Source: an uncultured Ruminococcus sp. (GTDB taxonomy: Bacteria > Bacillota > Clostridia > Oscillospirales > Acutalibacteraceae). From it: a stretch of DNA of 45,517 nucleotides. The stretch spans positions 1 to 45,517 of the forward strand of contig CAZNTP010000001.1 of NCBI GenBank assembly GCA_964575985.1, in the 5' to 3' direction. The notes beneath the pieces are model-generated. The model saw only the letters and a list, made by a program, of their open reading frames with translations. It had not been told where the DNA came from and did no database searches. Numbering within the stretch: the stretch's first letter is position 1; every line of letters starts with the position of its first letter. Below are positions 3,422 through 20,371 of this stretch, piece by piece. The position numbers and the translations under genes are program-made.

Positions 3422-6400
3422 TCAGTTTGCTAAATTCAATTCACCCTCGCCGTTTTGATATAGACGAATCCAATCAATATAGTACTCTGCGGGGAGATTT
3501 TCTTCAGCATTCTCTATCTCACAGCCTACATAAGGCTTATAAGAACTGTTTTGTGTAAACAAATGATTGTTAATAAGAACTGATACAGCAGTATCAAAGC
3601 CGCTCATATCGCTTATACCGTCAAAATTATTTGTTAAGTCATAAGTGTAGTACGCAACGCCATCAACATACATTGTAATCTCGGTAGGAGTCCACTTAAA
3701 TCCGTATAAATGATATTCGTTGTTAAGATTTTCCCACTCAGTGAAGGTATATACATCCTCGCCTGCCCACTGTGTGTGCTTGCCCGAGCCGTCGGTGTAC
3801 CATTTATGAATGTTAGGAACAACTGTATCTTTAGATGCAAACTGCTCGAAAATATCAATTTCAATGGTATAATCAGCATCCTGATTTGCGTTAAGTGCGC
3901 GACCGCTCGACATCCAGAAGCCCGGCCAACAACCAGTTCCAAACGGAATTTTAGCTTTCATCTCAAGATAACCGTATTTAAAGCTCATAGAATCCTTTGT
4001 GGATACAGTAGCAGGAACAACATAACGGTCATTATTATCAATATAATTGTCGGCATGAAGCTTTAATAAACCGTCCTCTACTTTGGTAGAAGAATTGCTG
4101 TTGCTATAATCAATAACTAAATCATTAGTACCTGAAAGCTGATTCCAAACTCTATGATAGCGGTCCCACTTAGAAATGTCAAGAGAATCTTGCTCGAATT
4201 CATCGCCCCAAACATAAACATACTCGTCACCGATAGGTGCGGTAGAGGTGAAATCAGAGGATAAATTAAACAAAGAGATTTTTCCGTTTTGAGAACTTCT
4301 TAAAAATTCTCTGTTAGCCATCATAACTGTCTGTGTATGTCCACCGCTGATAACAATGTTGTCACCGTCCTGGGAAACGGAGTAAGCTCCGTCTCCCATA
4401 TTGGTATCTACAGTTAAAGCAATTGTTTTTTCTGCTACAGCAGAATCAGCATCAGCAACCGTTAAAGCTACACCCTCGTTTAATAAATAGTATTCTTTAA
4501 GAGCTAAAGCCTCGCTATATAAATCTGCATTATTTGCATCATAAGTGATTACATAATCGGATGTGATTTCAAAATCCACAAGAGCCGATGCATCTAATCC
4601 CTTCTTTTTAAGATTTACAAGGTCACGGACATCGCTGAAGCCGTCTTCATTCAAATCGGTTAAACCGAATTCAGCTACACCGAGTATATGCTTTCTGAGC
4701 GCGGTCATATCAAGAGCGTTGCCCTTTCTGTCACCGTTGATATCACCCATTCTCATACCTGTAGCTTTAAGTGCGGGGAAGCCTTCGGTCCAGTAGAACT
4801 CATCGTTAGCATTAATAGCTGCGATTGCCTCAAGACCCTCTTTGCCTGTAGCATTTTCTACTACTGTGTAGCTTGAATCCAAATCAGTGTCAGTAACAGG
4901 AGCTACTGTTCCAATGTTATTCAAACCGTTAAATACTAATACACTTGTAGGAACATAGTTTGCAGTGAAGGTATTTCTTATAGTTTTAGTACCTGTACCC
5001 TTCCATACATCTGCAAATGCAGCGCCGTATCTTGCACCCTCAGTCCAGGTAAGCTCACCTGTGAATATACAGCCGTCGATAAGAATGGAATCGTCACCGC
5101 CGCCGATTATACCGCCAACCTGTGCATTTTGTGAGTTAGAATTGTCAGCAAAGGAATTAGAAAGCTTAACTGTATCGTCAACATAACAGCCAATTACTCG
5201 GCTATCGTCATCAACAAAGCCTATAATACCGCCAACATAGCTAGCACCGCTCTCTGCCAAGGTTGAATATAAGGTAATACTTGAATCGGTAAGAGAAAGG
5301 TCGCTTATTACCGCATTGCTAGCTATTGGAATAAAGCCTACATTAGTATTATTCCATTCGATAGAGCCATTGTAATAAAGACCGCTTACAACATAGCCGT
5401 TACCGTTGAGAGTTCCCTTAAATGCTTTAATTCCTTCGCTCTTTGAAGTGAACCAGCTATTATCGGTAGCACCGTCTTTATTAAGCTTAATATCAGCAAC
5501 TAATTCATAATACTTGCCTGTTGAATCTGTTTTAAGCATTCTTACAAGCTGTTCAGCAGTCTTAATAATATAAGGATTATTTGAGCTACCGTTACCGCCT
5601 GCAAATTTATCTGCAACAGCACCTGACCAAACAGTGCCCTCAATACCACTATAGAAAACAGTAGGATAAGAGGTTGTTGCATAGAAACCTGTAAGTAAAG
5701 GCATATTATCGAGTGCGTTTGCGCCCTTCATAAGTTCAGCACTGTCAAGCTTATTAACTGTACCAGTATACGCAAAATTCTCTGTGCCAATATTGTAACA
5801 ATTCTCTACTGTAATCGAATTGCTTTTATGCCCAGTCATAGGTACGTTTGCCGCAGAAAAACTATTCTTAATTACACGGGCGGCAGCAGTATTGCCCCAA
5901 ATATTTCCTATAAACGCACCCATAGTATCAGGGGCAGTTATTGTTGCCATAACTGCAGAATCATAAATATATACCTTTGGTGAGTTGTAAGCTACAAAGC
6001 CTGCAGCACCCGTTCCGCTTTCTGTAGTAGTAATCTTAACTGTCTCATCAACAATACATTTCTTAAAGGTCAGGGTTTCTTGACCATAGCCTACTAATGC
6101 TGCAACAGCATTTGAAGATGTGACATCCGCATTGCTTATACGCAAATTGGTAATTGTTGTGTTACTAGCCTGTGGGAATAGAGCTGCCCTGTCAGAACCA
6201 TTATAGTAAAGACCGTGGATTGTGTAGCCTGCGCCGTCAAGTGTGCCTACAAAGGCGGTGTAATTTATAGCCGCTCTGTCATACCAGCTGTTAGGAGAAT
6301 TGCTTGCCCAATCAGCCTTTGATACATCGTTAAGATAAATATCAGCGCCTAAAACGTAATATTTACCCGTTTCGGAGGTACCCTCTATAAGCATTTTAGC

Positions 6401-9400
6401 TAACTGCTCAGGTGTTTCGATAACATAGGGATTTAAAGCTGTACCGCTACCGGCTGCATAATCCTCTGCAATAACACCTGTCCAAACCTCACCCTTAACA
6501 CCGTTAGTATTACGGTGGATAGGATATCCACTATCGGTTGTTGTCCAAACTGCCTTCCAATCAAGGTTTGGCATATTGGTTTCAGCCGCAGCACCCTTCA
6601 TCAAGGAATCCTCAACATACGGGGCTTGAGTAACCGTAAAGGTTTCGGTATCTAACTGCTCTGCAGTATAGCTATTTGTGATAGTACCTACATAATAGGT
6701 TGAAAATGCTTCTTTAGCAAAGCTATTTGTAATAGTAACGTTTCTTGTGCCGCCACTTGACCAATAAATACCGCCAACCATTGAGCCTCTTCTATATAGC
6801 GAAGGTTGAGCTACGGGGTCAACCAACGATTCAAAATGACCTAAGGAATAAGAATCAGAAATATTAACAACACAGTTACCGTTAGCAACAAAGCCGCCTG
6901 CAACTACAGCTGAGATAACCTCAACGCTTTCGGTAATACCGCACTTTTCAAAGTTCACTGTGCCTGAGCCAAGACCAACAAAAGCAGAAGCAGAAGCGTT
7001 ACTGCTATAATTATTCACAATATGTGAATCAGAAATAATAACATTTTTAAATGTTGCTGTTCCGCTGGTCTTTGAAACCAAACCTGTATATTGACTGTCG
7101 CTGCCGTTAATATACAAACCGTATATCTTATGACCTGCGCCGTCTAATGTGCCTTGGAAAGCCACATCGTTAACCGAGCTTTTACCGTTCCATTCTTTAG
7201 CAGAATCGGTCCAATTTGAAGCAGACACATCATTTAGATAGATATTGGTTGTTAATTTGAAATACTTGCCGCTTGTTTCATCACCCATAGCAACCATATA
7301 AGCTAATTGCTCAGCATTTTCGATTAAATATGGGTCTGCTGCAGTACCGCTGCCATTAGTGAATTTTTCTAATGTTCCGTTCCAAATTTCATCTTCATCT
7401 GGAACTTCATTAATTAAATCGGTAATATATGCAGAGAGCTTTTGAGCATATGTGGTTTGTACCTCAAGTGAAGGATGTCCTTTAGCACCATCAGTAGAAG
7501 TAGGTAATTCGAGCGAATAAATACCGCTTGATTTACCGCCCATATCGGCAACCGCCTTTTTTATAATGCTTGTAGCATCATCACGCATCATACCGTAAAC
7601 CCAAACTATCTTAGCGTTGGGGTTCTTTTCTCTGACAAGAGCTATCATAGCTTCAAATTCTGCTTCAACATCAGCCTTAGTTTTATCGTAATCAGCATAG
7701 GTCCACATATCATTTGTGCCAAGACCTAATACCACAACATCAGGCTGACGGGTGAAAGCATAATCTGAAGTATTATTTGCATAATAACGTGTTTTGGGAT
7801 AAACAGTCTGCATCGAAGCACCGTTTTCGCCGTACCAACCGTAACCGTTACCTGCTGTAATACCACTTTTAGCTAAAACAGACCAATCCGCGCCAAGTGC
7901 TTTTGCGGTAAGATAAGGCCAACCTCTTGTTGCATCCTGATAAAGAGTAGTATTCTCTCCCGAACTATCGGTCAAGATACCTGCATTTGCAGTTATAGAG
8001 TCGCCTATAAACTCAATATATAACTCGTTATCCTCAGGGGGTGCTACGAATTCGCCGTTTAAATCAATAGCAGTGATACCGTAAGAAGCCTTTTCAGCTT
8101 CGGTTTGATTATAAATTGCAAAGGTATGTTTACCTGCGGGTAAATCCTTTGCAATAACAAACATTGATTTACCTGCGGTTTGAATATGATAAGGATATCC
8201 TGTTGAATTGCTTAACCAGCTATCAGAAGCAGTATCTTCAGGCATTCTTAAATTTTCATATTGAACAATGCCATCAACAACAACGGTGAAATAAATACCA
8301 TCTGTAGCGCCCTTTACAATTTTATCTGTATTAAAGGTAACAACCACATTGCCTGAACATTCAGCATTAAACTCTATACCGGATGCTGACCAATCAATAT
8401 ATAATGTGTTGTTTAAAAGCTCTGTTCTGCCCTGTGTTTTGTAAAGACCTTCGAGTTCTTCTATAGTATAGTAGCCCTCAGGCTTTTCACCAGAAATCAC
8501 AGGGAAACCGCTTTCGGTAACAGACCAAATGCCCCAATCAAGTAAAGGCATATTAGTCTTAGCAGCAGCGCCCTTCATTAAATCAGCGCTATCAAGTGCG
8601 ATTGCGCTACCTGTAATGATGCTAGCGCTTGGGTCTTCACCTATTCTATAGGTATTATTTACAGAAATTCCGTGTGAAACATGACCTGCTAAAGGAAGCT
8701 CAGATGTAGTATAACTGAATGAGATAGAACGTTGTACGCTTGTACTCCAACAGTTACCTATAAATGCACCCTTGCTGTTTGTTGTGTTAGAGTTGATTGT
8801 TGCCATAACAGCAGAATCTTCAATAAATACATTCGGTGAGCCGTATGCCACGAAACCGCCTATACCCTCTTGACCGCCTGAAGCAATAGTATTTGTAAGG
8901 CTTACAGTTTCGTCAACAATACATTTCTTAAATGTAACAGTATTTTGAGCAAAGCCTACTAAGGCTGCTACTCTTTCGGTAGAATTCACATAGGAATTGC
9001 TAATACGCAAATTTGTAATGGTTGTATTACTTGCCTGTGGGAATAAACCGAAAAGCGAAGCACCTGTATAATAAAGACCGTGAATTGTATAGCCTGCACC
9101 GTCAAGATTTCCTACAAAAGCAGTATTATTTATAGCCGCTCTGTCATACCAACTAAGAGGTGCGTTATCTTTCCAATCAGCTTGAGCCACATCGTTAAGG
9201 TAAATATCAGCAGTTAATTTGTAGTAACCACCTGTGGTATCTCCACCCTTAACCATTTTAGCCAACTGCTCAGGGGTTTCAATTAAGAAAGGATCTGCCT
9301 CTGTACCGCTACCGCCTGCAAAGTTATCTGCAACTGCGCCTGACCAAGCCTCGCCCTTAACGCCGTTAGAATCACGGTAGGTAGGATAGTCATTCTCGGT

Positions 9401-11194
9401 TGTCTGCCAAACGCCTCTCCAATTAAGATTTGGCATATTGGTTTTAGCCTGGGCGCCCTTCATTAAATCAGCGCTTTCAAGTCTTGTAACGCCTGTTTCA
9501 TCGGCAACTGCATCGCCCACACCGTAAACATTAGTAAAGGTCACCTTTGTATTCTGGTAACCGTTAAAGGCCATCGGAGTTGTAGCGAAACTATTGGTAA
9601 TCGTTCTTGTTGTATTCCATACGTTACCAATCATTGAACCTGTATTGCCACCGGCTGAAGTAATGTCTGCTAAAACTGCACAACTATCAATATTAATAGC
9701 GGTCTGACTTCCACCGTAAGCTACAATACCGGCGATACCGCTTGTACCTGTAGTGGTAAGCTTTACGGTTTCATCAATAACACATTTATTTATAGCAACA
9801 GTATTTTGGAAATATCCGATTAAAGCGGATACTTGAGCCGAAGAGGTAACATCCGCGTTGCTTATACGCAAATTAGATACGGTTGTATTACTCACCCTTG
9901 GCAATAAACCTATTAAATTAGCGCCGTTATAGTAAAGTCCGTGAATTGTGTGACCTGCACCGTCAATATTACCAATGAATATAGCTTTATTAACATCAAT
10001 ATAATCATACCAACTAATAGGCGAATTGCTTGCCCAATCAGCGTTTGATACATCGTTAAGATATATATCGGCAGTTAATTTATAATACTTATCTGTTGTT
10101 GTAATACCAAAGAAGAGCATTTTAGCTAATTGCTCAGGGGTTTCGATTAAATAGGGGTCAGCGGCTGTACCTGTACCGCCTGCAAAGTCATTTGCAATAA
10201 GACCACCCCAAGCTTCGCCCTTAACACCGTTAGGATTACGGTATATAGGATAACCGCTCTCGGTTACTGCCCAAACACCTCTCCAATCAAGGTTAGGCAT
10301 ATTGGTTTTGGCCTCAGCGCCCTTCATAAGTTCTGCGCTTTCAAGTCTTGTAACACCGTTTTCAGCAGTAACACTTGTTCCAACACCGTAGTTGTTACTC
10401 GAAGTTGTTAAATAATTCTTACCGTTAAAAAGCACTTCGGGTGTAGCAATTGTATTTGTTATTGTCTTAGGTTGACTTGCCGTATACCACAAATTACCAA
10501 AAATTGCACCTGCCATTACACTTGAACTTACTGTTCCAAAAAATGCACAATTATCAACAGTTACTGTACCTGTACCGTATGCAACAAAGCCACCTGCGCT
10601 GGCATTAGTATCGCTGCTAGTAGTTGTTAAGTTTACACTATCTGTTACATAACATTTGCTAATACTAATTGAATATCCACCGTATGAAAAACCAAACAAA
10701 GTAGCGACACGAATACCACTTGTTGTAAATTCACTATCAGAAACGGTAAGATTTTTAACCGAAACTGTGCCTCCTGCAAGACCGAAAAGCGAAATGTAAT
10801 CGCCACTTCCGTTATAGTAAGCACCATATACAGTATGACCGTCACCGTCTAAATTAGCTTGGAATTTAATGCCACTAACATCCCATTGGCGAGCGCTTTC
10901 CTTCCAATTTTCCTTGGTAATATCATTAAGATAAATATCTGCATTAAGCTTGTAATACAGACCGCTTGCCCCATCACCAAGGGTTGCTAAATAATAGAAC
11001 TGCTCGGGGGTTGCAATTAGGTATGGGTCTGCTTCTGTACCTGTACCGCCTGCAAATGCAGTTGCAGCCGTACCGTCCCAAACATCAAGCTCGGTACCCT
11101 CTGCCGATGCTACAAAAGGTAATCCTGCTATTGTTGAAAAAATCATGGAAATTGCTAAAATAACACTTAAAACTTTACTTAGTTTTTTATTCAT
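3422..11194 (-). CDS. Giant secreted multidomain protein (2590 aa). Order: signal peptide, 3 GLUG-like ~290-aa modules, CE2-like esterase, 3 more modules, dockerin, alpha/beta domain, GH16 glucanase
   Basis: Single uninterrupted ORF with RBS AAAGGAG and signal peptide MNKKLSKVLSVILAISMIFSTIAGLPFVASA. Six repeats carry the signature G-[ST]-G-T-x-x-D/N-P-Y-L-I-x-T-P-E-Q-L ... YYKLTADIYLND ... GxLDGxG[HY]T[IV]xG[LI]Y ... AGGFVA ... L[DE]SA[DE]LMKGxxAKTNMPNLxW..VW. Other domains are listed separately. Confidence 0.9.
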   Translation of the reverse strand: MNKKLSKVLSVILAISMIFSTIAGLPFVASAEGTELDVWDGTAATAFAGGTGTEADPYLIATPEQFYYLATLGDGASGLYYKLNADIYLNDITKENWKESARQWDVSGIKFQANLDGDGHTVYGAYYNGSGDYISLFGLAGGTVSVKNLTVSDSEFTTSGIRVATLFGFSYGGYSISISKCYVTDSVNLTTTSSDTNASAGGFVAYGTGTVTVDNCAFFGTVSSSVMAGAIFGNLWYTASQPKTITNTIATPEVLFNGKNYLTTSSNNYGVGTSVTAENGVTRLESAELMKGAEAKTNMPNLDWRGVWAVTESGYPIYRNPNGVKGEAWGGLIANDFAGGTGTAADPYLIETPEQLAKMLFFGITTTDKYYKLTADIYLNDVSNADWASNSPISWYDYIDVNKAIFIGNIDGAGHTIHGLYYNGANLIGLLPRVSNTTVSNLRISNADVTSSAQVSALIGYFQNTVAINKCVIDETVKLTTTGTSGIAGIVAYGGSQTAINIDSCAVLADITSAGGNTGSMIGNVWNTTRTITNSFATTPMAFNGYQNTKVTFTNVYGVGDAVADETGVTRLESADLMKGAQAKTNMPNLNWRGVWQTTENDYPTYRDSNGVKGEAWSGAVADNFAGGSGTEADPFLIETPEQLAKMVKGGDTTGGYYKLTADIYLNDVAQADWKDNAPLSWYDRAAINNTAFVGNLDGAGYTIHGLYYTGASLFGLFPQASNTTITNLRISNSYVNSTERVAALVGFAQNTVTFKKCIVDETVSLTNTIASGGQEGIGGFVAYGSPNVFIEDSAVMATINSNTTNSKGAFIGNCWSTSVQRSISFSYTTSELPLAGHVSHGISVNNTYRIGEDPSASIITGSAIALDSADLMKGAAAKTNMPLLDWGIWSVTESGFPVISGEKPEGYYTIEELEGLYKTQGRTELLNNTLYIDWSASGIEFNAECSGNVVVTFNTDKIVKGATDGIYFTVVVDGIVQYENLRMPEDTASDSWLSNSTGYPYHIQTAGKSMFVIAKDLPAGKHTFAIYNQTEAEKASYGITAIDLNGEFVAPPEDNELYIEFIGDSITANAGILTDSSGENTTLYQDATRGWPYLTAKALGADWSVLAKSGITAGNGYGWYGENGASMQTVYPKTRYYANNTSDYAFTRQPDVVVLGLGTNDMWTYADYDKTKADVEAEFEAMIALVREKNPNAKIVWVYGMMRDDATSIIKKAVADMGGKSSGIYSLELPTSTDGAKGHPSLEVQTTYAQKLSAYITDLINEVPDEDEIWNGTLEKFTNGSGTAADPYLIENAEQLAYMVAMGDETSGKYFKLTTNIYLNDVSASNWTDSAKEWNGKSSVNDVAFQGTLDGAGHKIYGLYINGSDSQYTGLVSKTSGTATFKNVIISDSHIVNNYSSNASASAFVGLGSGTVNFEKCGITESVEVISAVVAGGFVANGNCVVNISDSYSLGHFESLVDPVAQPSLYRRGSMVGGIYWSSGGTRNVTITNSFAKEAFSTYYVGTITNSYTAEQLDTETFTVTQAPYVEDSLMKGAAAETNMPNLDWKAVWTTTDSGYPIHRNTNGVKGEVWTGVIAEDYAAGSGTALNPYVIETPEQLAKMLIEGTSETGKYYVLGADIYLNDVSKADWASNSPNSWYDRAAINYTAFVGTLDGAGYTIHGLYYNGSDRAALFPQASNTTITNLRISNADVTSSNAVAALVGYGQETLTFKKCIVDETVKITTTESGTGAAGFVAYNSPKVYIYDSAVMATITAPDTMGAFIGNIWGNTAAARVIKNSFSAANVPMTGHKSNSITVENCYNIGTENFAYTGTVNKLDSAELMKGANALDNMPLLTGFYATTSYPTVFYSGIEGTVWSGAVADKFAGGNGSSNNPYIIKTAEQLVRMLKTDSTGKYYELVADIKLNKDGATDNSWFTSKSEGIKAFKGTLNGNGYVVSGLYYNGSIEWNNTNVGFIPIASNAVISDLSLTDSSITLYSTLAESGASYVGGIIGFVDDDSRVIGCYVDDTVKLSNSFADNSNSQNAQVGGIIGGGDDSILIDGCIFTGELTWTEGARYGAAFADVWKGTGTKTIRNTFTANYVPTSVLVFNGLNNIGTVAPVTDTDLDSSYTVVENATGKEGLEAIAAINANDEFYWTEGFPALKATGMRMGDINGDRKGNALDMTALRKHILGVAEFGLTDLNEDGFSDVRDLVNLKKKGLDASALVDFEITSDYVITYDANNADLYSEALALKEYYLLNEGVALTVADADSAVAEKTIALTVDTNMGDGAYSVSQDGDNIVISGGHTQTVMMANREFLRSSQNGKISLFNLSSDFTSTAPIGDEYVYVWGDEFEQDSLDISKWDRYHRVWNQLSGTNDLVIDYSNSNSSTKVEDGLLKLHADNYIDNNDRYVVPATVSTKDSMSFKYGYLEMKAKIPFGTGCWPGFWMSSGRALNANQDADYTIEIDIFEQFASKDTVVPNIHKWYTDGSGKHTQWAGEDVYTFTEWENLNNEYHLYGFKWTPTEITMYVDGVAYYTYDLTNNFDGISDMSGFDTAVSVLINNHLFTQNSSYKPYVGCEIENAEENLPAEYYIDWIRLYQNGEGELNLAN
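3425..4225 (-). other. GH16 (beta-glucanase/laminarinase-like) catalytic domain of the 2590-aa protein
   Basis: Motifs: YVWGDEFEQDSLDISKW start, GCWPGFWM, the catalytic E-x-D-x-x-E motif EIDIFE (rc of 3845-3862), and a YGFKWTP...DWIRLYQ tail. Confidence 0.8.
4600..4750 (-). other. Dockerin-like duplicated calcium-binding segment, internal to the 2590-aa protein
   Basis: GDINGDRKGNALDMTALRKHILG ... DLNEDGFSDVRDLVNLKKK. These are two D-x-N-x-D-G-type loops, each followed by a helix, as in type-I dockerins. Confidence 0.7.
7405..8480 (-). other. CE2-like carbohydrate esterase insert (beta-sandwich plus SGNH hydrolase) in the middle of the module array
   Basis: A beta-sandwich-like segment (LYIDWSASGIEFNAECSG...HTFAIYNQTEAEK) is followed by the SGNH blocks IEFIGDSITA (Ser codon rc of 7997-7999), LGLGTNDMW and DGAKGHPS. 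Confidence 0.6.
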
Positions 11195-11229
11195 AGAATT
11201 TGCTCCTTTCCATTGTTTGAATTTATAAA

Positions 11230-12816
11230 TTAATACGCTGTATCAAGAACTGCACCGTTATCATCCTTTTGATATAAGCGTATCCAATCCACAAAATACT
11301 CTGCGGGGAGGTCTGCGTGATAAATCTCGCAGCCATCATAAATCTTCCAAGTGCTAGACTGAGTAAATAAATGATTGTTAAAGATAATGTGAAGCTGTGC
11401 TTCCTCAAAGCCAATATTACCCGATTCACCGTTATCAAAGTTTTTGGTGATGTCATAGGTGTAGTAGGCTTCACCGTCGATATACATTATCATCTCGGTA
11501 GGTGTCCACTCGAAACCGTAAATGTGGTATTCATTTACAAGGTTTTCGGCATTCTCAAATGTATAGCCCTCACGCGAAGCATCTGTTTCATCAGCCCACA
11601 TAGTATGATCACCTAAGTGATACCATTTATGAACATTAGGCGCCAAGCTATCTATACTTGAGAAGACCTCAAAAATATCAACCTCAATAGTGTAATCAGC
11701 CTTGTATTTACCTATTGTTCCGTAGGAGTTTGCGCTGCTCATCCAGAAGCCAGGCCAACAGCCACGCTTAAAGGGCACCTTGGCGCGCATTTCGAGATAA
11801 CCGTATCTAAAACTCATTTCGTTCATTGAGGTTACCGACCAGGGACAAGCGAATTCCGCACCGCCGATTTTTGGGTTATAGTACCTTCTTGCAAACATCT
11901 TTAAATATCCGTTTTCAAGTCGGATTGCTTCCTCAGAATCGTCCAACGCGATTTCGGCATTTCCTGCCATTTTGGTTGATAAATTCCATTTCTTTGTGTT
12001 TAACTCGGCAGCCTCGAACTCGTCACCCCAAACATAAGTATAACCGTTGGGCTTTGTGGAAGAAAACTCCTGTTTTTCATCAAAAACATTAGCTTTGCCT
12101 TTAGTTCTTTCAAGTCTTGTGAAAAGCTCAACCGCTTTTTCGGTCATAGTGTCATGACCGCCGCCGAAAATGAGCTTGCCATCCTTAACCTCGGCAAAAT
12201 AACTGCCCTCTTCACACTTTTTCGTGTATCGGCTTGTATTGCCAATCAAAATTTCTTTTGATTTGGCGGCGGTGCTGTCATCCTTTATTTCGAGTTCAAC
12301 ACCGTCTGTCTTTTTAAAATAATCCTTTAGTGTTTCAGCTGCATATTTTAAAGTTTTGTTTCCCTTGGGATAAATTATGGTATATCCTTTAGGACCGTCC
12401 CAGCCTACGCTTTCGCTCTCGAAAGCGATATCGGCTTCATATTTTGAAGCCTCTATGCTCTCAACCGTGGGAATAAAGCGGTCTGTAACATAATTGTCAA
12501 CCTCATCTTCGGTTTCATCCTCAGAATCATCCTCCGCTTCACCGTCATTGTCTTCCGTATCGCTTTCGGTGTCACTCTCGGTTGTATCATCTGAACCGCT
12601 CTGTGTATCACTTTCAGTTTCATCCTCAGAGTCACTCTCGGTGTCGCTTGCGGTTTCATCCTCAGCACTACTATCGGTATTGTTTTCTGTAGTTTCGCTA
12701 TTAACCGATGAAGCATCCGTCGGTTTCTTTTGAGGTTTCTTCTCGTTATCACCGCAACCGCAAACCGCCAAAACGATTAAGAAACACAATAAAATACTTA
12801 GTATTCTTTTAAACAT
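11230..12816 (-). CDS. Lipoprotein with acidic S/T/D/E linker, alpha/beta domain and GH16 beta-glucanase domain
   Basis: 528-aa ORF with RBS AAAGGAG and lipobox LAVCGC. It has an acidic low-complexity segment (SDTESDSEDETESDT...). GH16 motifs: YVWGDEFEAAELNTKKW, GCWPGFWM, EVDIFE (rc of 11668-11685), YGFEWTP...DWIRLYQ. It is paralogous to the C-terminus of the 2590-aa protein. Confidence 0.9.
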   Translation of the reverse strand: MFKRILSILLCFLIVLAVCGCGDNEKKPQKKPTDASSVNSETTENNTDSSAEDETASDTESDSEDETESDTQSGSDDTTESDTESDTEDNDGEAEDDSEDETEDEVDNYVTDRFIPTVESIEASKYEADIAFESESVGWDGPKGYTIIYPKGNKTLKYAAETLKDYFKKTDGVELEIKDDSTAAKSKEILIGNTSRYTKKCEEGSYFAEVKDGKLIFGGGHDTMTEKAVELFTRLERTKGKANVFDEKQEFSSTKPNGYTYVWGDEFEAAELNTKKWNLSTKMAGNAEIALDDSEEAIRLENGYLKMFARRYYNPKIGGAEFACPWSVTSMNEMSFRYGYLEMRAKVPFKRGCWPGFWMSSANSYGTIGKYKADYTIEVDIFEVFSSIDSLAPNVHKWYHLGDHTMWADETDASREGYTFENAENLVNEYHIYGFEWTPTEMIMYIDGEAYYTYDITKNFDNGESGNIGFEEAQLHIIFNNHLFTQSSTWKIYDGCEIYHADLPAEYFVDWIRLYQKDDNGAVLDTAY

Positions 12817-12844
12817 ATATAATTTCTACTCCTTTCAGCGGTAA

Positions 12845-15800
12845 TTAAACTTTAGTTTTGCGTTTTTTTATAATAACCACAGCAACTACTGCTCCCGCGA
12901 TCAAAACTGCCAAAACCACAGCGGACAATATAATTAACCAAAGATAACTTGTCTTATCGGCCTTTTGGGTTTTCTTATTATTGTCCTTAGAATTAGATAC
13001 TTCTTTGGAGGATTCATCCTCGTCATCTTCTGTACCATCCTCAACCTCAGATTCCGTTTCGTCCTCATCCGAATCGTCAAACTCAGGCAACTCCTCATCG
13101 GTATCCTGCCAATAGTCATCAAAATCGAATTCATCGTCTTCCGTATCGGTCGGATTTGAAGTATCCTCAATATCTTCGTCATCCTTGCCAGCAGGTTGCT
13201 TGTCAGACTCATCCTTTTCATCCGAGTCCTTAATACCAACATATCTTAATGTTGTTACCATAAAATCATCAAAGAATATGCTGGCGTTACCTGTTGTTCT
13301 GATAGCTATCCACTGAGTTTTAGCCACAAACTTATAGGTAACCTCTATCCATTCGCCGCTACTTATACTATCGAACTTTTTAATCAGCTCAACACCCGAA
13401 TCGCTGTCATATATATCGGGCCAATCTTCGTGCACAAGGGATAAATCAAATGAAGTATCTTCGGTATCGGTGCTTACATAGAATTTCATTTCATACTCGG
13501 TGCCGACCTTTAGCAAATCTTCATAGAAAACAAGGAAATCAGCGTCGTAATCCTCATTTCCGATTCTATGCATACTTGAAACTCCGCCTTTTACATAGCT
13601 ACTGTCATAAGCAAAGGTTCCCGGACGGTAGTATTCATAATCCTCGCCGTAGTCATACATAGTATTTGCATAATCCTCGAAATCCTGAATAAAGCTGGTC
13701 TTTTCCCATTTAGCATAAAGTGTCTGATCAAAGTAGGGGAAGAAATCGTATGTATACTCTATATCAAGCTCTTTGTAAACAAACCAACCTGCAAACTTAT
13801 AGCCTTCTCTTTCGGGGGTTGGTAACTTTAATGCATCCTCAGGGTTACCGTACATATTCTCACATTCGGTACCGCCATTGCTTATGAATGTAATCTCAAT
13901 AGGCTTAGGATCGGTTGTGTTCGAGAATTTATCGGTTGTTCCAAATACTCTGAGCACAGGTGTTCCGTTAGGTAATGCGTACCAAACCTTATCGAAATCC
14001 AAGCCCTTCATATTCTTTTTAGCTGCATCGCCGCGCATCATAAGTACACTTATTCTTGTCTGGAAAGAGCTAAGACCTAAATATGTAGAATAGTTGTCAA
14101 CATAATCAATAGTAGAGAATGAGTTGGATATACCCGCTCTGCCCGCCGCAAGATAATCACTATCAGCAGTAGCGGAATAGCATCTTCTTACTGCGGCATT
14201 TGTATACTGTGATTGAAGCCAGGTATCGCCGATAATTGCGCCGCCCTTTAGACTAAAGTTGAGTTTACCCACAAAGTAGCAGTCTTCAATAACTACAGGT
14301 CTAGGCACACCGCAGACAATACCGCCTGTGCCTCTTCCCTCTAAATAAACCGATGTGCTACCAAAGCACTGTGAAATATAGGCAGGGTCACGAGGAGCGT
14401 TATCATCCTTATAGAATACAGAGCCCGCAATACCTGCAACATAGTTACCCTGTATCGATTCGTCGGTCATTTTAACTCTCATATATGCGTCAGATATACC
14501 AACCTTTTCGATAACGGCGCCATCGGTAATTGCTGAGAAGAGACCTGCATAAACAACCTCTGTTGTCTGCAACAGATCCAAATACATACCGTAAATTACA
14601 TGACCGTCGCCGTCAAAATGACCGTCAAAGCCGGTATCCTTTGAGGAAGAAGACCAATACCAATGGTTTGGATTGTTCTCTTTCCAATCTTCCTTTGAAA
14701 CGTCATTAAGATAAATATCAGCTGCTAGCTTGTAATATTTATCTCTGCAAACTGTAAGGTTAGAGCAAAGCTTTGCCAACTGCTCAGGGGTTTCGATAAT
14801 ATAGGGGTCATCCTTTGTTCCGTTACCGCTGGCATAGCTATCAGCCGCAGCACCCGACCAAATACCGCCGACTGTTCCTTTGTAGACCGTGAAATTGAGA
14901 ACGGGGAATCCGTTTTCGTCTTCAAACCACATATTTTTCCAGTCAAGCAAAGGCATATTAGTCTTAGCGTTCTCGCCCTTCATTAAAGCAATATCGCTTA
15001 TAATAGTAGGTTGAGCTATCTCAACATCGGTAAGCTTCTCTGAAGAGTAGCTATCCAATATCTTTCCTATATAATAGTTGGTAAAGGCTTCTTTTGCAAA
15101 GCTCTGATTTACAGAAACCGTTCTGTCTGTCGTAGCAGACCAATAAATACCGCCAACCATAGAGCCGTGTCTCTTGGGAGATTCAAAATGCCCCAAAGAA
15201 GCGGAATTTTCAATATATATCTTTCCGCTACCGTTAGCAACAAAGCCTGCGGCTGTGTTTGCAGTTTTACAAATTACGCTTTCGGTAATATAGCATCTGT
15301 CAAATCTTGCAGTTGCGCCTGCGGTTATCCAACCAATAAACGCAGCAGCAGAGCCTTCCTCGCTGTTAGCTTCTATGTAAGCGTCGGAAATAACAATTCT
15401 TTTGAATGATACGCTTCCGTCAGCGCGGGAAACCAAGCCTATGCTTGCTTTATCTGAGCCGCTATAATACATACCGTATACCGTATGACCTGCGCCGTCC
15501 AAATTACCTTGGAAAACACCGCCGGTGCCAACCCAGGACACAGCAAAATCGATCCAATTCTCTGCAGAAACATCATTCAGCTTAATGTCGGCAGTAAGCA
15601 CATAGTATTTACCGCTTGTAGCGTCGCCGTCGGTTGCCATTTTTGCAAGCTCGGCACCGTTAGAGATTTTGTAAGGATTCTTTTCGCTACCGTCACCGCC
15701 TGCAAAGCTATCGGCAATAGTACCGTTCCAAACGGTAGTATCCATATCGCCCATATCCATATATACAGGATAACCCGTCTCGGAAGGCTTCCATACATTT

Positions 15801-18800
15801 ATCCAATTAAGCTTTGGCATATTGGTTTTAGCCTGGGTGCCCTTCATTTTGTCAGTACTGTCAAGCCTTATAACGCCGTTTTCGGCAGTAAGTGTTGTTC
15901 CAACACCGTAGTTGCTCTTTGAACTGTCACTTATAGTCTGCTTACTGTTAAAAGGAATCTCGGCAGAAGCGAAGCTGTTGGTGATTATTTTGGTGGAATT
16001 CCAAACATTACCAATCATTGAAGCTTTATGTACCGGAGATTCTACAGTTCCAAGGAATGCCGAGCTATCAATTGTTATAGTACCGTTACCGTAAGCCACA
16101 AAGCCTGCGGCAGAGGTTTGAACCTCATCACTACAGGTTGAGATAACCTCAACACTTTCATTAGCGTATACCCTTGAAATATCAATATTGGAGCCCGAAG
16201 ATACAAATCCTATAAGCGCAGAAGCCGCATATCCCGAGGTTTCCATATGACAGCTTGAAAGGAATAAATTACTGATACTCACATTGCCCTTTACTCTTGT
16301 AAATAGACCTACATAATTTTCTGTACCTGTATAGTAAAGTCCTGAAACGGTATAACCTGCGCCGTCAAAATTGCCTTGGAAATAGTTTCCTGTTATTACC
16401 CATTTATTTGCATAATTTTTCCAATCGGCGTCAGTTACATCATTAAGCTTTATGTCATTAGCCAATACGTAATATTTGCCAGCGGTGGCATCACCGTCGG
16501 TTACCATTTTGGCAAGCTGTGCGCCGTTAGTAATTATATAAGGTGTAGCCTTTTCACCGTCACCGCCGGCAAAATCGGTTGCTACCGTGCCGTCCCAAAC
16601 AGTCGGGTCGATTATTACTTCGCCAACATATTCGGGATAACCTGTTTCGGTGGTTTTCCAAACAGTCTTCCAATTAAGGTTTGGCATATTGGTTTTAGCC
16701 TGGGTGCCCTTCATTAAGTCAGCACTGTCAAGCTTGGTAACTGTTCCGGTGTAATCCAGCGTTTCGGTTCCAACGCTATAACATTTCTCGACTGTGATTG
16801 AGTTTGTAGTGTGAGCAGTCATAGGAGCATCGGTTGCTGAAAAGCTATTTGTTATAGAACGGTCAGCTGCCGTATTTCCCCAAACATTTCCTATAAATGC
16901 ACCCTTGTATTCATTAGCCGTAATCGTTGCCATTACGGCAGAATCCTCAATATGAATCTTCGCTGTGCCGTAAGCCACAAAGCCTGCTATTCCCTTATCA
17001 CCTGATGCAATATTGTTAGCTAGTGTTACGGTTTCATCAACAATACATTTGCTAAATCTAAGGGTTTCTTTACCAAATCCCACCAACGCCGCAACTTTTT
17101 CTGTAGAATTTACATAAGCATTGCTTATACGCAAATTCTTAATAGTTGTATTGCTCGCCTGCGGGAAAAGTGCAAATATAGAAGAGCCATTATAGTAAAG
17201 ACCGTAAATGGTGTGTCCGTCACCGTCAAGATTGCCTACAAAAGCTATATTGTTTATATCGGCTCTATCGTACCAACGGTTAGGTGAATTTTCGGTCCAA
17301 TCAACCTGAGATATGTCGTTTAGCTTTATATCAGCTGTTAATTTGTAATAACCGCCCTCGGTATTTCCCTCTTTAACCATTTTGGCTAATTGTGACGGGG
17401 TTTCGATTAAATAAGGGTCTGTCTCTGTACCTGTACCGCCGGCAAATGCGGTTGCTACTGTACCGTCCCAAACAGTCGGGTCGATAACTACATCCCCCTT
17501 AAATTCAGGATAACCTGTTTCGGTGGTTTTCCAAACAGTCTTCCAATTAAGGTTTGGCATATTAGTTTTAGCCGCAGTGCCTTTCATTAATTCTACATTG
17601 CTCACATAAGTCGCCTGAACTACGGTAGAATCAAGTTGTTCGGCAGTATAACTGTTTGTAATTGAGGTTGCATAATAGTTTGTAAACGCTTCAATAGCAA
17701 AGCTGTTATTTATTGAAACATTTCTGCCGGCACCGCTTGACCAATAAATACCGCCAACCATAGAGCCTCTTCTATCGCGAGCAACACCCTGCGATTCAAA
17801 ATGGCCTAATGAAGCACAATTGGTAATATTAATCGTACCGCTACCATTAGCAACAAAGCCGCCGGCTACATTTGCAGCCACAACATTTACACTTTCGGTA
17901 ATGCGACATTTATCAAAGCTAACAGTCGAACCGCCGCTCAAATTACCTACAAAAGCAGAAGCAGCACCTTCAGAACTATGAGTATTCTTTATATAAGAGT
18001 CAGAAACTGTAAGGTTTTTAAAGGTTGCAGTTCCCTTTGTGCTTACAACCAAACCTGCGTTCCAACTGCCCGATACATCAAGGTAAATACCGTATACGGT
18101 ATAGCCTGCACCGTCCAAATTACCTTGGAAAGAAGCAGAGGTGAATTCACTGGCACCTACCCACATTGTAGCCGAATCGGTCCAATTAGTCTTGGATACA
18201 TCGTTAAGATATATATCTGCACCCAACACATAATATTTTCCGCTTGTAGCGTCGCCGTCTTTAACCATTTTGGCTAACTGCTCAGGGGTTTCGATTAAGT
18301 AAGGGTCTGTCTCTATACCTGTACCGCCCGCAAAATCAGTTGCAACTGTACCGTCCCAAACACCCTCTATATCAGATGGTGGTGTAACCTCAGTTTTAAA
18401 TATAGGATAACCGCTTGTCGTTGTAGCCCACACCTCATCCCAGTTAAGACCCGACATATTGGTTTTAGCAGCTTCACCCTTCATTAATTCTACATCACTT
18501 ACATAAGTCGCCTGAACTACAGTAGAATTAAGCTGTTCGGCGGTGTAGCTGTTTGTAATTGAGGTTGCAAAATAGTTAGTAAATGCTTCTTTAGCGAAGC
18601 TGTTATCTACATTAACAGCTCTTGTTCCCCATATACCTCCAACCATTGAACCTCTTCTGTCGCGTTTAACTCCAAGTGATTCAAAATGACCCAATGATAC
18701 AGAATTGGTAATATTAACTGTACCGCTACCGTTAGCAACAAAGCCACCTGCCACATTTGCGGCTATAGCATTTACGCTTTCTGTAACACGGCATTTATCA

Positions 18801-20200
18801 AAACTTACTGTTCCTGAATTTAGATTGCCGACAAAAGCCGAGGCGGCGCCTTCGTCGCTATGAGTACTCTTTATATAAGAGTCGGAAACTGTAAGGTTTT
18901 TAAAGGTTACATTTCCTTTTGCAGCAGGAACTAAACCTGCATTCCAACTGCCCGATACATCAAGATAAATACCGTATACGGTATAGCCCGCGCCATCTAA
19001 ATTACCTTGGAAAGAGGCAGAGGTAAATTCACTGGCACCTACCCACATTGTAGCCGAATCGGTCCAATTAGTCTTGGATACATCGTTAAGATATATATCT
19101 GCACCCAACACATAATATTTTCCGCTTGTAGCGTCGCCGTCTTTAACCATTTTGGCTAACTGCTCAGGAGTTTCGATTAAGTATGGGTCTGTCTCTGTAC
19201 CCGTACCGCCCGCAAAATCATCTGCAACAGCGCTCGACCAAACCTCACCCTTAACACCGTTAGTATCGCGATAGGTAGGATATCCGCTTTCGGTAGTCTG
19301 CCAAACACCCTTCCAATTAAGATTTGGCATATTAGTATTAGCCGCAGTGCCTTTCATTAAATCAGCATTGTCAAGCTTAGTAATAGTTCCGTTTGTAAGG
19401 TTTGTCGAACCAATAGTATAACAATTGGTTGCGGTGATTTTATTTGAATGATGGCCTGTCATAGGTACATCTGTTGCAGAAAAACTGTTTTTAACCGTAC
19501 GCGTACCCGACCAACAGTTACCGAAAAATGCACCTTTATATGATTCTGCTGTGATTGTTGCCATTACAGCGGAATCTTCTATATTAATATTAGCAGAACC
19601 GTAGGCGACAAAGCCTGCTAATCCCTTATCGCCAGATGTAATGTTATTAGAAAGCGTTACGGTTTCGTCAACAATACATTTCTTGAAATTAAGAGTACCT
19701 TGACCAAAGCTTATCAAGGCGGCAGCCTTCTCGGTAGAGTTAACATACGCATTACTGATACACAAATTTGTGATTGTTGTGTTGTTTGCCTGCGGGAAAA
19801 GAGCAAACATAGAACTACCTGTGTAGTAAAGACCGTGAATGGTATGTCCGTCACCGTCAAAATTACCTACAAACGCGGTATTGCTTATGTCAGCCCTGTC
19901 ATACCACTCGTTCGGTGAATTGCTTGCCCAATCAGCCTGCGATACATCGTTAAGGTAGATATCTGCGGTCAATTTATAATATCCGCCTGTAGTGTCTCCA
20001 CCCTTAACCATTTTGGCTAACTGCTCAGGTGTTGCAATTAAGTACGGGTCTGCCACTGTACCAGTACCACCCGCAAAATCAGTTGCAACTGTGCCGTCCC
20101 AAGCGTCTACCTGATTGGCATTAGCCAAAAAGGGTACGCCAATTACGGTACTTATAAGCAAAACAAACGCTGCCAAAACCGAAATTACTCTTTTCATCAT
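12845..20200 (-). CDS. Giant surface protein (about 2451 aa). Order: signal peptide, 7 GLUG-like ~290-aa modules, Listeria-Bacteroides-type repeat, beta-sandwich (CBM-like) domain, acidic linker, C-terminal transmembrane anchor
   Basis: The ORF is open to 20278, but the double ATG at 20195-20200 is preceded by GGAGAG and begins a classic signal peptide (MMKRVISVLAAFVLLISTVIGVPFLANA). It has the same module signature as the 2590-aa protein. The C-terminus is YLWLIILSAVVLAVLIAGAVVAVVIIKKRKTKV, with no LPXTG. Confidence 0.9.
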   Translation of the reverse strand: MMKRVISVLAAFVLLISTVIGVPFLANANQVDAWDGTVATDFAGGTGTVADPYLIATPEQLAKMVKGGDTTGGYYKLTADIYLNDVSQADWASNSPNEWYDRADISNTAFVGNFDGDGHTIHGLYYTGSSMFALFPQANNTTITNLCISNAYVNSTEKAAALISFGQGTLNFKKCIVDETVTLSNNITSGDKGLAGFVAYGSANINIEDSAVMATITAESYKGAFFGNCWSGTRTVKNSFSATDVPMTGHHSNKITATNCYTIGSTNLTNGTITKLDNADLMKGTAANTNMPNLNWKGVWQTTESGYPTYRDTNGVKGEVWSSAVADDFAGGTGTETDPYLIETPEQLAKMVKDGDATSGKYYVLGADIYLNDVSKTNWTDSATMWVGASEFTSASFQGNLDGAGYTVYGIYLDVSGSWNAGLVPAAKGNVTFKNLTVSDSYIKSTHSDEGAASAFVGNLNSGTVSFDKCRVTESVNAIAANVAGGFVANGSGTVNITNSVSLGHFESLGVKRDRRGSMVGGIWGTRAVNVDNSFAKEAFTNYFATSITNSYTAEQLNSTVVQATYVSDVELMKGEAAKTNMSGLNWDEVWATTTSGYPIFKTEVTPPSDIEGVWDGTVATDFAGGTGIETDPYLIETPEQLAKMVKDGDATSGKYYVLGADIYLNDVSKTNWTDSATMWVGASEFTSASFQGNLDGAGYTVYGIYLDVSGSWNAGLVVSTKGTATFKNLTVSDSYIKNTHSSEGAASAFVGNLSGGSTVSFDKCRITESVNVVAANVAGGFVANGSGTINITNCASLGHFESQGVARDRRGSMVGGIYWSSGAGRNVSINNSFAIEAFTNYYATSITNSYTAEQLDSTVVQATYVSNVELMKGTAAKTNMPNLNWKTVWKTTETGYPEFKGDVVIDPTVWDGTVATAFAGGTGTETDPYLIETPSQLAKMVKEGNTEGGYYKLTADIKLNDISQVDWTENSPNRWYDRADINNIAFVGNLDGDGHTIYGLYYNGSSIFALFPQASNTTIKNLRISNAYVNSTEKVAALVGFGKETLRFSKCIVDETVTLANNIASGDKGIAGFVAYGTAKIHIEDSAVMATITANEYKGAFIGNVWGNTAADRSITNSFSATDAPMTAHTTNSITVEKCYSVGTETLDYTGTVTKLDSADLMKGTQAKTNMPNLNWKTVWKTTETGYPEYVGEVIIDPTVWDGTVATDFAGGDGEKATPYIITNGAQLAKMVTDGDATAGKYYVLANDIKLNDVTDADWKNYANKWVITGNYFQGNFDGAGYTVSGLYYTGTENYVGLFTRVKGNVSISNLFLSSCHMETSGYAASALIGFVSSGSNIDISRVYANESVEVISTCSDEVQTSAAGFVAYGNGTITIDSSAFLGTVESPVHKASMIGNVWNSTKIITNSFASAEIPFNSKQTISDSSKSNYGVGTTLTAENGVIRLDSTDKMKGTQAKTNMPKLNWINVWKPSETGYPVYMDMGDMDTTVWNGTIADSFAGGDGSEKNPYKISNGAELAKMATDGDATSGKYYVLTADIKLNDVSAENWIDFAVSWVGTGGVFQGNLDGAGHTVYGMYYSGSDKASIGLVSRADGSVSFKRIVISDAYIEANSEEGSAAAFIGWITAGATARFDRCYITESVICKTANTAAGFVANGSGKIYIENSASLGHFESPKRHGSMVGGIYWSATTDRTVSVNQSFAKEAFTNYYIGKILDSYSSEKLTDVEIAQPTIISDIALMKGENAKTNMPLLDWKNMWFEDENGFPVLNFTVYKGTVGGIWSGAAADSYASGNGTKDDPYIIETPEQLAKLCSNLTVCRDKYYKLAADIYLNDVSKEDWKENNPNHWYWSSSSKDTGFDGHFDGDGHVIYGMYLDLLQTTEVVYAGLFSAITDGAVIEKVGISDAYMRVKMTDESIQGNYVAGIAGSVFYKDDNAPRDPAYISQCFGSTSVYLEGRGTGGIVCGVPRPVVIEDCYFVGKLNFSLKGGAIIGDTWLQSQYTNAAVRRCYSATADSDYLAAGRAGISNSFSTIDYVDNYSTYLGLSSFQTRISVLMMRGDAAKKNMKGLDFDKVWYALPNGTPVLRVFGTTDKFSNTTDPKPIEITFISNGGTECENMYGNPEDALKLPTPEREGYKFAGWFVYKELDIEYTYDFFPYFDQTLYAKWEKTSFIQDFEDYANTMYDYGEDYEYYRPGTFAYDSSYVKGGVSSMHRIGNEDYDADFLVFYEDLLKVGTEYEMKFYVSTDTEDTSFDLSLVHEDWPDIYDSDSGVELIKKFDSISSGEWIEVTYKFVAKTQWIAIRTTGNASIFFDDFMVTTLRYVGIKDSDEKDESDKQPAGKDDEDIEDTSNPTDTEDDEFDFDDYWQDTDEELPEFDDSDEDETESEVEDGTEDDEDESSKEVSNSKDNNKKTQKADKTSYLWLIILSAVVLAVLIAGAVVAVVIIKKRKTKV
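13700..13900 (-). other. Listeria-Bacteroides (Flg_new-type) repeat within the 2451-aa protein
   Basis: ITFISNGGTECENMYGNPEDALKLPTPEREGYKFAGWFVYKELDIEYTYDFFPYFDQTLYAKWE matches the familiar pattern: v-F..nGG ... p.P.r.GY.F.GW ... LYA.W. Confidence 0.6.
17465..19228 (-). repeat. Tandem duplication (2 x 882 bp = 2 x 294 aa) of one module inside the 2451-aa gene
   Basis: Modules 2 and 3 share long identical peptide runs (ETDPYLIETPEQLAKMVKDGDATSGKYYVLGADIYLNDVSKTNWTDSATMWVGASEFTSASFQGNLDGAGYTVYGIYLDVSGSWNAGLV). At the DNA level, 18144-18286 and 19026-19168 are identical by hand comparison (about 140 nt, offset 882). Flanks are roughly 90 percent similar. Confidence 0.8.
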
Positions 20201-20311: not shown

Positions 20312-20371
20312 ATTTTAACATATATTCGCTATAGAACAATGTAAAAAATTAATTATAATATGTCAAAAAAG
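20312..20371 (-). promoter_or_regulatory. Promoter plus tandem direct-repeat activator-type site upstream of the giant-protein unit
   Basis: The minus strand carries two direct repeats (plus-strand ATGTAAAAAATT at 20339-20350 and ATGTCAAAAAAG at 20360-20371, 21 bp apart). These are followed by -35 TTGTTC (rc of 20334-20339), a 16-nt spacer ending in TGT, and -10 TAAAAT (rc of 20312-20317). The core 37 bp is 32/37 identical to 39109-39145. Confidence 0.5.

Follow-up and report, generated by a model that had tools for sequence, protein, structure and literature searches.

We analysed a complete contig of 45,517 nucleotides from an uncultured Ruminococcus sp. (GenBank CAZNTP010000001.1, assembly GCA_964575985.1; hereafter the window), in which two giant paralogous genes, gene A (3422..11194, 2590 aa) and gene B (12845..20200, 2451 aa), both on the minus strand, encode surface proteins built from 13 copies of a GLUG-like module of ~285 aa. 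On the basis of profile searches, AlphaFold2 (AF2) modelling and Foldseek comparisons we place the module, as a divergent branch, in the GLUG / M26-N-like superfamily of small β-helices, and in no catalytic β-helix family. We tentatively interpret the modules as non-catalytic glycan-capture units, resembling carbohydrate-binding modules (CBMs), in a rod that also displays carbohydrate esterase family 2 (CE2) and glycoside hydrolase (GH) family 16 domains; we rate this interpretation at somewhat under an even chance.

Motif searches together with a MAFFT alignment delimited six modules in A and seven in B, of 280–306 aa apiece, and a hidden Markov model (HMM) built from the 13 copies recovered exactly 6 + 7 full-length matches in the window. 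The two paralogous giants and their module count, which an initial annotation made from the letters of this DNA alone had proposed, are thus borne out by motifs, alignment and HMM. Pairwise identity among the modules is 27–85%, far beyond chance. The motif skeleton quoted in that annotation is a real family consensus but not an invariant one: only 21 columns are invariant across the 13-copy alignment, in which the C-terminal motif of A6 is degenerate and B7 is divergent.

At least three subtypes had been predicted, and the identity matrix recovers three (module coordinates are those of the window, minus strand). Subtype I comprises A3 (8492..9352, aa 615–901), A5 (5654..6490, aa 1569–1847), B1 (19268..20107, the input for the AF2 model described below) and B4 (16625..17476), with A2 (9374..10216, aa 327–607) as a relative whose YGVG segment is type-III-like. 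Subtype II consists of A4 (6512..7384, aa 1271–1561), B2 (18395..19246), B3 (17498..18364; 85% identical to B2) and B6 (14894..15736), and subtype III of A1 (10238..11086, aa 37–319) and B5 (15758..16603). Two singletons fall outside these groups: A6 (4775..5635, aa 1854–2140), a divergent copy whose GLUG turns are canonical and whose C-cap is degenerate, and B7 (13949..14866), the membrane-proximal terminal module, which is 52% identical to the last module of the giants in the related loci L003 and L004. With A2 written as I' and the singletons as X and Y, module order is III-I'-I-(CE2)-II-I-X in A and I-II-II-I-III-II-Y in B.

Compared as DNA, the copies are for the most part 60–85% identical, and pairwise comparison of copies (NG86) gave a synonymous divergence (dS) of 0.6–1.6 and a ratio ω of 0.13–0.33 along the whole module. 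The 13 copies are old paralogues, each maintained under purifying selection, and therefore unlikely to be a product of mis-assembly. Identity changes in mosaic fashion along some module pairs, which shows sub-module gene conversion. For example, A3 and B1 are 81% identical N-terminally and 59% C-terminally, and the proportion of synonymous differences (pS) between B2 and B3 is 0.17 N-terminally and 0.64 in the middle. The N-terminal parts of B2 (18929–19228) and B3 (18047–18346) hold a 300-nt block that is 95% identical, the remainder of the two modules being 74–82% identical; this block is a recent gene-conversion tract and the likeliest spot for a copy-number error.

We consider it extremely improbable that the arrays are chimeric or that their copy number was collapsed or expanded in assembly. 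Full-length A and B proteins are on record from the present contig alone, an independent short-read contig (Logan, SRR14307658) breaks within conserved module segments, and the 95% block is common to B2 and B3, all of which could be expected of an artefact. Against this, the copies differ by 15–40% in DNA with the dS values given above, the reading frames are uninterrupted across 7.4–7.8 kb in A and B, the Logan contig is 100% identical over 11161–15842 (4.7 kb), and orthologous arrays of 5–8 modules recur in many metagenome-assembled genomes (MAGs). A mis-assembly of fewer true copies, which the initial annotation had named as one of two findings that would overturn it, is accordingly unlikely in view of copy divergence, dS and the identical 4.7 kb.

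No model of Pfam or NCBIfam (searched with the whole giants and with single modules) matched the module at or above its cut-off. Peptidase_M26_N (PF05342) reached at best 22.2 bits in A against a cut-off of 27.7, and matched 3 of the 13 modules when these were searched singly (best E 0.055). GLUG (PF07581) scored 18.1 bits in A against a cut-off of 20.5 and nothing in B, and singly matched two of the 13 (best E 3.5e-6); every copy shows GG[FIM]V[AG] turns. The Beta_helix, Pectate_lyase and GH28 models of Pfam had no match in A, B or single modules. Of the Pfam families whose presence had been suggested for checking, GLUG is below cut-off in A and matches two modules singly, Beta_helix is missing, and Flg_new is above cut-off in B.

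Sequence profiles led further. Searched against the Protein Data Bank (PDB) with hmmsearch, the 13-module profile matched 3n6z_A (E 4.4e-10, profile positions 11–284, in two stretches), the match running from the GxGTxxxPYxI N-cap through the FDGxxH turn and the GG[IV]xG rungs to the C-terminal W...GYP. The same profile matched the N-terminal domain of the Streptococcus pneumoniae IgA1 protease weakly (E 0.06). An AF2 model of B1, based on a 51-sequence alignment (pLDDT 95.6, pTM 0.93), is a right-handed β-helix that a helix caps at the N-terminus and that ends in two short helices. When this single module was compared with PDB structures in Foldseek (the initial annotation had advised a comparison with lyase and GH β-helix families), 3N6Z was the sole match with E ≤ 1e-3 (E 3e-5, probability 1.0, TM-score 0.58). 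Next came the N-terminal domains of IgA1 proteases (E 5e-3, TM-score ~0.5), and pectate lyases, polysaccharide lyase family 6 (PL6), GH87, SRRP and PfbA matched poorly (E > 0.05, TM-score 0.2–0.36). A two-module AF2 model brought nothing new from the PDB and no catalytic family at a useful score, and hhalign of the module against the window's own pectate-lyase-fold protein (25977..27224) returned a probability of 0.1%.

The relatives found in this way carry little functional information. A homologue search of word-indexed proteins returned only unnamed or 'hypothetical' matches of at most 536 aa. In the literature the GLUG motif is described as of unknown function, perhaps in adhesion, and a survey of fibrillar adhesins classes an M26_N-like cluster as 'ambiguous'; our search of the literature for GLUG, 3N6Z and related domains found no functional study of the module. 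The view that the module has no assigned activity is upheld on all these counts. The N-terminal domain of IgA1 protease is non-catalytic; it binds the Fab of IgA1 and acts as a gate to the active site (PMC7695701). It thereby touches on the question, raised in the initial annotation, of a match to a family with an established non-glycan function, but the relationship (profile E 0.06, TM-score ~0.5) is too remote for function to be transferred.

Across 196 full modules, conservation reaches at least 80% only at residues of the caps and the Gly turns. In the N-cap and first rung these are W3, G5, G14, G16, P21, Y22, I24, L30, L47, D50, I51, N54, W61, F79, G81, D84, G85, G87, G92, Y94, G104 and L105, and in the C-cap G258 and P282. 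The polar members of the set, D50, N54 and D84, all belong to the N-cap or first rung, and the helix body (positions ~110–250) is variable. No conserved acid/base cluster of the catalytic type is present in the 196 modules, nor in 12 proteins that combine a single module with a dockerin and that follow the same conservation pattern. Conserved acidic residues, whose mapping had been put forward as a check, thus show in the sequences nothing resembling an active site, and on its sequence the family appears unlike an enzyme family. The type-II motifs GHFES, SMVGG and FAKEAF, rich in H, E, R, K and Y, were considered as an ancient active site and rejected, as they occur only in the present genome.

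Complete proteins of 385–434 aa consisting of a signal peptide, one module and a dockerin exist, and the module is therefore a functional unit beyond a spacer. The confidence scores of an AF2 model of B1–B2 (17 sequences; pLDDT 91.2, pTM 0.81), in which the linker has a pLDDT of ~88–91, suggest that the modules meet at a defined junction, from which a rod would follow.

The family extends far beyond this genome. An exhaustive search of 1.84 billion cluster representatives at 50% identity with the HMM returned 65,021 proteins at E ≤ 1e-3, of which 5,169 reach E ≤ 1e-30, with the largest arrays comprising 22 matched stretches and proteins of up to 7,824 aa. Among species-representative genomes, relatives come mainly from MAGs of herbivore and human guts that belong to Acutalibacteraceae, Oscillospiraceae, Ruminococcus and other Clostridia, and also from Fibrobacter and Bacteroidota (Paludibacteraceae, Prevotella, Muribaculaceae). 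The best related loci place the source organism approximately within Oscillospirales (Acutalibacteraceae/Oscillospiraceae-like). Giants with 5–8 modules are frequent, copy number varying from 3 to 22 across arrays. Most B-type giants have in common a tail of Flg_new, a CBM-like domain and a transmembrane (TM) helix. The A-type ending (modules, then a Ca-binding repeat that by eye resembles a dockerin, then a GH16-like domain) recurs in loci L006 and L014. Distant relatives are fused to fn3, Big_2, CBM26, dockerin, DUF4886, sorting domains of the type IX secretion system (T9SS) and FimA-like domains; fusion partners in other lineages include GH16, CBM26, a CBM4/9-like domain, Flg_new and Big_2. 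In the viral library BFVD, A0A8S5VQE1, A0A8S5TTR3 and H9YQW5 (527–570 aa) share the module fold (E 1e-8 to 4e-8), one of the three being annotated Siphoviridae sp.; viruses thus also use the fold, which is uninformative for function.

Internal modules of the present genome are 38–85% identical to each other and at most 46% identical to those of the syntenic giants in L003 and L004, while the flanking permeases are 76–82% identical to those of the same loci. As internal modules are closer to one another and B7 has orthologues elsewhere, we conclude that arrays lengthen through tandem duplication and gene conversion, on the upstream side of a terminal module that is conserved. The module-level recombination that had been proposed is supported by the mosaic identity, the 95% block of 300 nt and internal modules closer to each other than to those of orthologous arrays; the word 'shuffling', with which it was described, is better replaced by duplication and conversion as above. 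The 7–8-module giants of another clade (L010, L017, L020 and L021) show only 25–30% identity within a protein, and their modules are positionally orthologous between species (39–53% on the diagonal). An array can thus be ancient, with modules specific to their positions, in contrast to that of the window, which is partly homogenised.

Besides their modules, the two giants carry several recognisable domains. According to the open reading frame (ORF) listing, the minus strand carries nearly all genes between 813 and 39064. Gene A encodes, from its N-terminus, a signal peptide, A1–A3, a CE2-like esterase, A4–A6, a dockerin, a GH20b-like domain and GH16; gene B encodes a signal peptide, B1–B7, Flg_new, a CBM4/9/22-like domain, an acidic linker and a C-terminal TM anchor. 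The signal peptides, read from the translations, are of the Sec type. The start of gene B is the ATG at 20200, which an AGGAG ribosome-binding site precedes by 5 nt, rather than the TTG at 20278 given by the ORF lister. The span 3422–20200, presented in the initial annotation as two giant genes, does contain both, but also a separate gene between them for a 528-aa GH16 lipoprotein (11230..12816, minus strand).

Domain coordinates that follow are again for the minus strand. The esterase of A, between A3 and A4 (7433..8482, aa ~905–1254), belongs to the SGNH type, with its GDS motif at aa 1064. It matches Lipase_GDSL_2 of Pfam at 54 bits, over the cut-off, whereas CE2_N stays just under (24.5 bits against 27.9) and the NCBIfam model AxeC2 is weak. 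Downstream of the modules lie a type I dockerin (4601..4747, aa 2150–2198; Dockerin_1, 24.1 bits, cut-off 22.9) and a region (3440..4573) holding a faintly matched GH20b-like domain and the GH16 catalytic domain. The latter scores 59.3 bits and its counterpart in the 528-aa protein 45.7 bits (cut-off 22), and the ExDxxE motif is intact in both (EIDIFE in A, EVDIFE in the 528-aa protein). Fusion of the modules to bona fide carbohydrate-active enzyme (CAZyme) domains, as claimed earlier, thus holds for GH16 and for the SGNH part, while the CE2 assignment falls slightly short of its threshold. The 528-aa protein consists of a lipobox, a ~90-aa acidic linker rich in D, E, S and T, a GH20b-like domain and GH16, and its C-terminal part is paralogous to the C-terminus of A. 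As both contain the GH20b-like + GH16 unit, A looks like a module array fused to a copy of the 528-aa GH16 gene. The closest solved relatives of the two GH16 domains are GH16 laminarinases (GH16_3-like) and entries of the 6T2N series, which we take to be mucin O-glycanases.

In B, the Flg_new (Listeria-Bacteroides) repeat (13709..13894) scores 43.1 bits in Pfam against a cut-off of 27. It is followed by a 150-aa CBM4/9/22-like β-sandwich (13235..13693) that is conserved in the tails of B-type giants. CBM_4_9 is matched by 11 of 13 orthologous tails (best E 4.6e-7) and only weakly by B itself (E 0.11), and a profile of the tails matches the CBM22 of Clostridium thermocellum xylanase Y in the PDB (E 4e-3). 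The C-terminal region (12848..13234) comprises an acidic linker (96 aa, 46% D/E) and a TM helix with a KKRKTKV tail. Pfam and NCBIfam searches found no peptidase domain in A or B, the M26 zinc-metalloprotease included, and no cohesin was found in A, B or the 20 other proteins of the window.

Genes B, GH16, A and the gene for a 523-aa solute-binding protein (SBP) lipoprotein (1816..3387, minus strand), which lies 3' of A and is last in the string, are separated by spacers of 28–35 nt, and gene B is preceded by an AT-rich gap of 207 nt with a promoter-like site (20338..20366, minus strand; a consensus match only). The four genes therefore look like a single transcription unit. A strong terminator-like hairpin (674–701, minus strand), with 12 pairs and then a T run, lies 3' of an AraC-family gene (813..1649) and may mark the end of this unit, with or without the AraC gene. 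Right behind the lipobox of the 523-aa SBP, a 12-nt tandem repeat of ~14 copies (3055–3221) encodes a low-complexity (TESK)n linker.

The genomic context is carbohydrate-related, and more strongly so than the initial annotation had claimed, the synteny of GH16, SBP, permeases, DUF5696 and Yip1 extending across many MAGs of Clostridia. Among 36 related loci with at least three modules, a homologue of the 528-aa GH16 protein adjoins in at least 15 and the SBP is present in at least 12, both counts being minima as many loci end at contig ends. The recurrent gene order is Yip1, DUF5696, two permeases, SBP, giant, GH16, giant. Genes for single-module dockerin proteins occur in the same Yip1-DUF5696-permease cassette, and other loci carry GH78 or GH43 enzymes there. 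In the window the cassette, of four to five genes (29896–34270, minus strand), encodes an NHL-like/Yip1 membrane protein (703 aa), a DUF5696 protein (748 aa) and two ABC permeases, to which an SBP is sometimes added; with giants or single-module dockerin genes it is found in L003, L004, L008, L016, L022, L038, L061, L081 and L084. For DUF5696, no sequence relative was found in the PDB and no mention in the literature searched, and the NHL/Yip1 protein had no informative relative among PDB sequences.

Other genes of the window encode a GH30, a GDSL esterase, the pectate-lyase-fold protein, a GH36, a CE4 esterase, two ABC systems and the AraC regulator, and together they fit an ABC-type Gram-positive polysaccharide-utilisation locus (PUL). 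The GH30 resembles exo-acting glucosylceramidase/SrfJ-type enzymes, and a β-glucan or β-galactan-type glycan is a plausible substrate of the locus. Two further observations concern individual genes. A 979-aa SBP (36125–39064, minus strand) has an N-terminal extension of ~600 aa without a Pfam match and is conserved at 49–55% identity over 95–98% of its length in L006 and L021, beside other module giants. The pectate-lyase-fold ORF (25977–27224, minus strand), with a TTG start, overlaps a xylose-isomerase-like TIM-barrel gene (27064–27969, minus strand) by ~160 nt, and its true start probably lies further downstream.

Comparison with known systems separates true homologues from analogues. The best Foldseek match, BACOVA_03286 of Bacteroides ovatus (PDB 3N6Z, 'putative immunoglobulin A1 protease'), is a true homologue, although it is a single-domain protein of 363 aa, 17% identical, with more rungs. 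It is a structural-genomics entry, and its 'IgA1 protease' name is an annotation carry-over. The N-terminal domain of the M26 IgA1 protease of S. pneumoniae (6XJA/6XJB/7JGJ) is a remote homologue, likewise a small β-helix with GLUG turns that is non-catalytic, folds independently and binds a ligand; it differs in occurring once per protein, beside an M26 Zn-protease domain that is absent from A and B. The best functional precedent is CBM89, a non-catalytic right-handed β-helix on a capybara-gut GH10 that binds xylan (PMC8810776), that is, a β-helix CBM fused to a CAZyme of a gut microbe and binding the substrate of that enzyme. Unlike our modules it has 14 turns, is present in a single copy and comes from Bacteroidota, and it was absent from the PDB profile matches at E ≤ 1 and from the best 50 Foldseek matches. 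SRRP of Lactobacillus reuteri (5NY0/5NXK), the Cthe_2159 family and PfbA are surface β-helices with weak Foldseek TM-scores (0.23–0.35), described as non-catalytic binders of pectic or cellulosic polysaccharides or of host ligands. They are analogues at the level of the fold, in which one binding region sits at the stalk tip and tandem arrays are lacking. Scaffoldins and fibrillar adhesins resemble the giants as giant secreted tandem-module proteins with a cell anchor at one end and use of dockerins, but their repeat is a ~150-aa cohesin or an Ig-like stalk domain instead of a ~285-aa β-helix.

According to the interpretation that we favour, each ~285-aa module would be a self-contained β-helix with conserved N- and C-caps and a variable helix body, and six or seven of them, joined head to tail by short ordered linkers, would form a semi-rigid surface rod of some tens of nm. 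B would be held by its C-terminal membrane anchor and A through its dockerin. The variable faces of the modules could then serve as multivalent surfaces for polysaccharide capture, resembling CBM89, SRRP and Cthe_2159-type binders, and in function the giants would be analogues of the surface glycan-binding proteins found in PULs of Bacteroidota. The rod would present the CE2-like esterase and the GH16 endo-glycanase to their substrate, and the oligosaccharides released might be imported by the adjacent SBP and ABC permeases and passed to intracellular exo-enzymes such as the GH30 glucosylceramidase-like protein. Beyond the observed anatomy, fold, homology, conservation pattern, synteny and purifying selection, we infer three elements of this model, namely glycan binding, the rigidity of the rod and the identity of the substrate. 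Several points weigh against it. The single characterised homologue, the IgA1-protease domain, binds protein rather than glycan, and CBM89, SRRP and Cthe_2159 are analogues with no detectable homology to the module. Rigidity is read from the pTM of a model with a shallow alignment of 17 sequences. Since B already has a CBM-like domain of conventional type, glycan binding by the helices might be unnecessary, and a purely structural spacer would equally show a poorly conserved helix body. Finally, the substrate is uncertain because the GH16 subfamily holds both laminarinases and mucin O-glycanases.

It is rather unlikely that the modules are an inert stalk, free of ligand, that pushes the CE2, GH16 and CBM-like domains through or beyond the cell wall or capsule, in the manner of DUF1735/BACON spacers and the stalk domains of fibrillar adhesins. 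Conservation restricted to caps and turns, tandem arrays anchored at one end with copy numbers from 3 to 22, the ordered junction suggested by the two-module model, and catalytic and CBM-like domains placed within the array or at its ends are all consistent with a stalk. Yet proteins with a single module and a dockerin occur in the same cassette, where a spacer with nothing to space would be pointless; the CBM-like domain of B is membrane-proximal, so that the helices are the outward part; and subtype- and position-specific sequences have been kept by purifying selection across species. Binding of proteins instead of glycans, whether host proteins (IgA, mucin cores), other cells or partner proteins of the locus, would make the giants adhesins or scaffolds, which we regard as unlikely. 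This would agree with the sole characterised homologue, with the adhesin-like role proposed in the literature for the combination of GLUG and Flg_new in gut microbes, and with the appearance of M26_N-like clusters in fibrillar-adhesin screens. It would also give partners to the dockerin proteins encoded beside membrane-anchored giants (giant A here; single-module dockerin and dockerin-GH16 proteins elsewhere), no cohesin being present in the window. The homology to IgA1 protease is remote, however, the family is abundant in fibre degraders of the rumen and herbivore gut and in Fibrobacter, the genes are linked to CAZymes, SBPs and permeases, and cohesins may lie elsewhere in the genome, beyond this one contig. 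A specific form of this idea, which we regard as a long shot, is that the B-type giant is a cohesin-independent scaffold whose modules, or whose tail of terminal module, Flg_new and CBM-like domain, receive neighbouring dockerin proteins. Here this would concern giant A, and in related loci a dockerin-GH16 protein and the dockerin proteins with one module. Such a scaffold, if real, would represent a novel type of system for assembling enzymes at the cell surface in the service of a single PUL.

The initial annotation had left room for a lyase or hydrolase, and that all modules, or one subtype, form a new β-helix family of lyases, hydrolases or esterases, the giants being multi-enzyme trains, appears improbable to us. 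The β-helix is the fold of PL1/3/6/9, GH28, GH141 and CE8, the single-module dockerin proteins resemble typical cellulosomal cargo, type-II modules bear the H/E/R/K/Y-rich motifs, and new GH families have been found among cellulosomal β-helix domains of unknown function (GH141). These points are outweighed by the lack of a conserved acidic/basic cluster in the 196 modules or the 12 dockerin-linked single modules, by type-II motifs that are absent outside this genome, by the poor scores of catalytic β-helices (TM-score 0.2–0.36, E > 0.05; hhalign 0.1%), and by the best structural relatives being non-catalytic or of unknown function. The catalytic option is accordingly disfavoured. Seven tandem catalytic domains of one family would, to our knowledge, also be unusual. 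We therefore retain glycan capture by non-catalytic modules as our working interpretation, at the tentative level stated at the outset.

Mechanistically nothing here is unprecedented; the family is very large and unannotated, and among the uncharacterised extracellular building blocks of gut and rumen metagenomes the module ranks with the larger ones. Here it is linked to a conserved Gram-positive cassette for polysaccharide utilisation (NHL/Yip1, DUF5696, ABC permeases, SBP and GH16), and the three subtypes within one genome offer a ready specificity panel. If the modules are glycan binders, they would constitute a new and very large family of β-helix CBMs and a Gram-positive counterpart of the surface glycan-binding proteins of Bacteroidota, and would provide an annotation for thousands of giant proteins now listed as 'hypothetical'.

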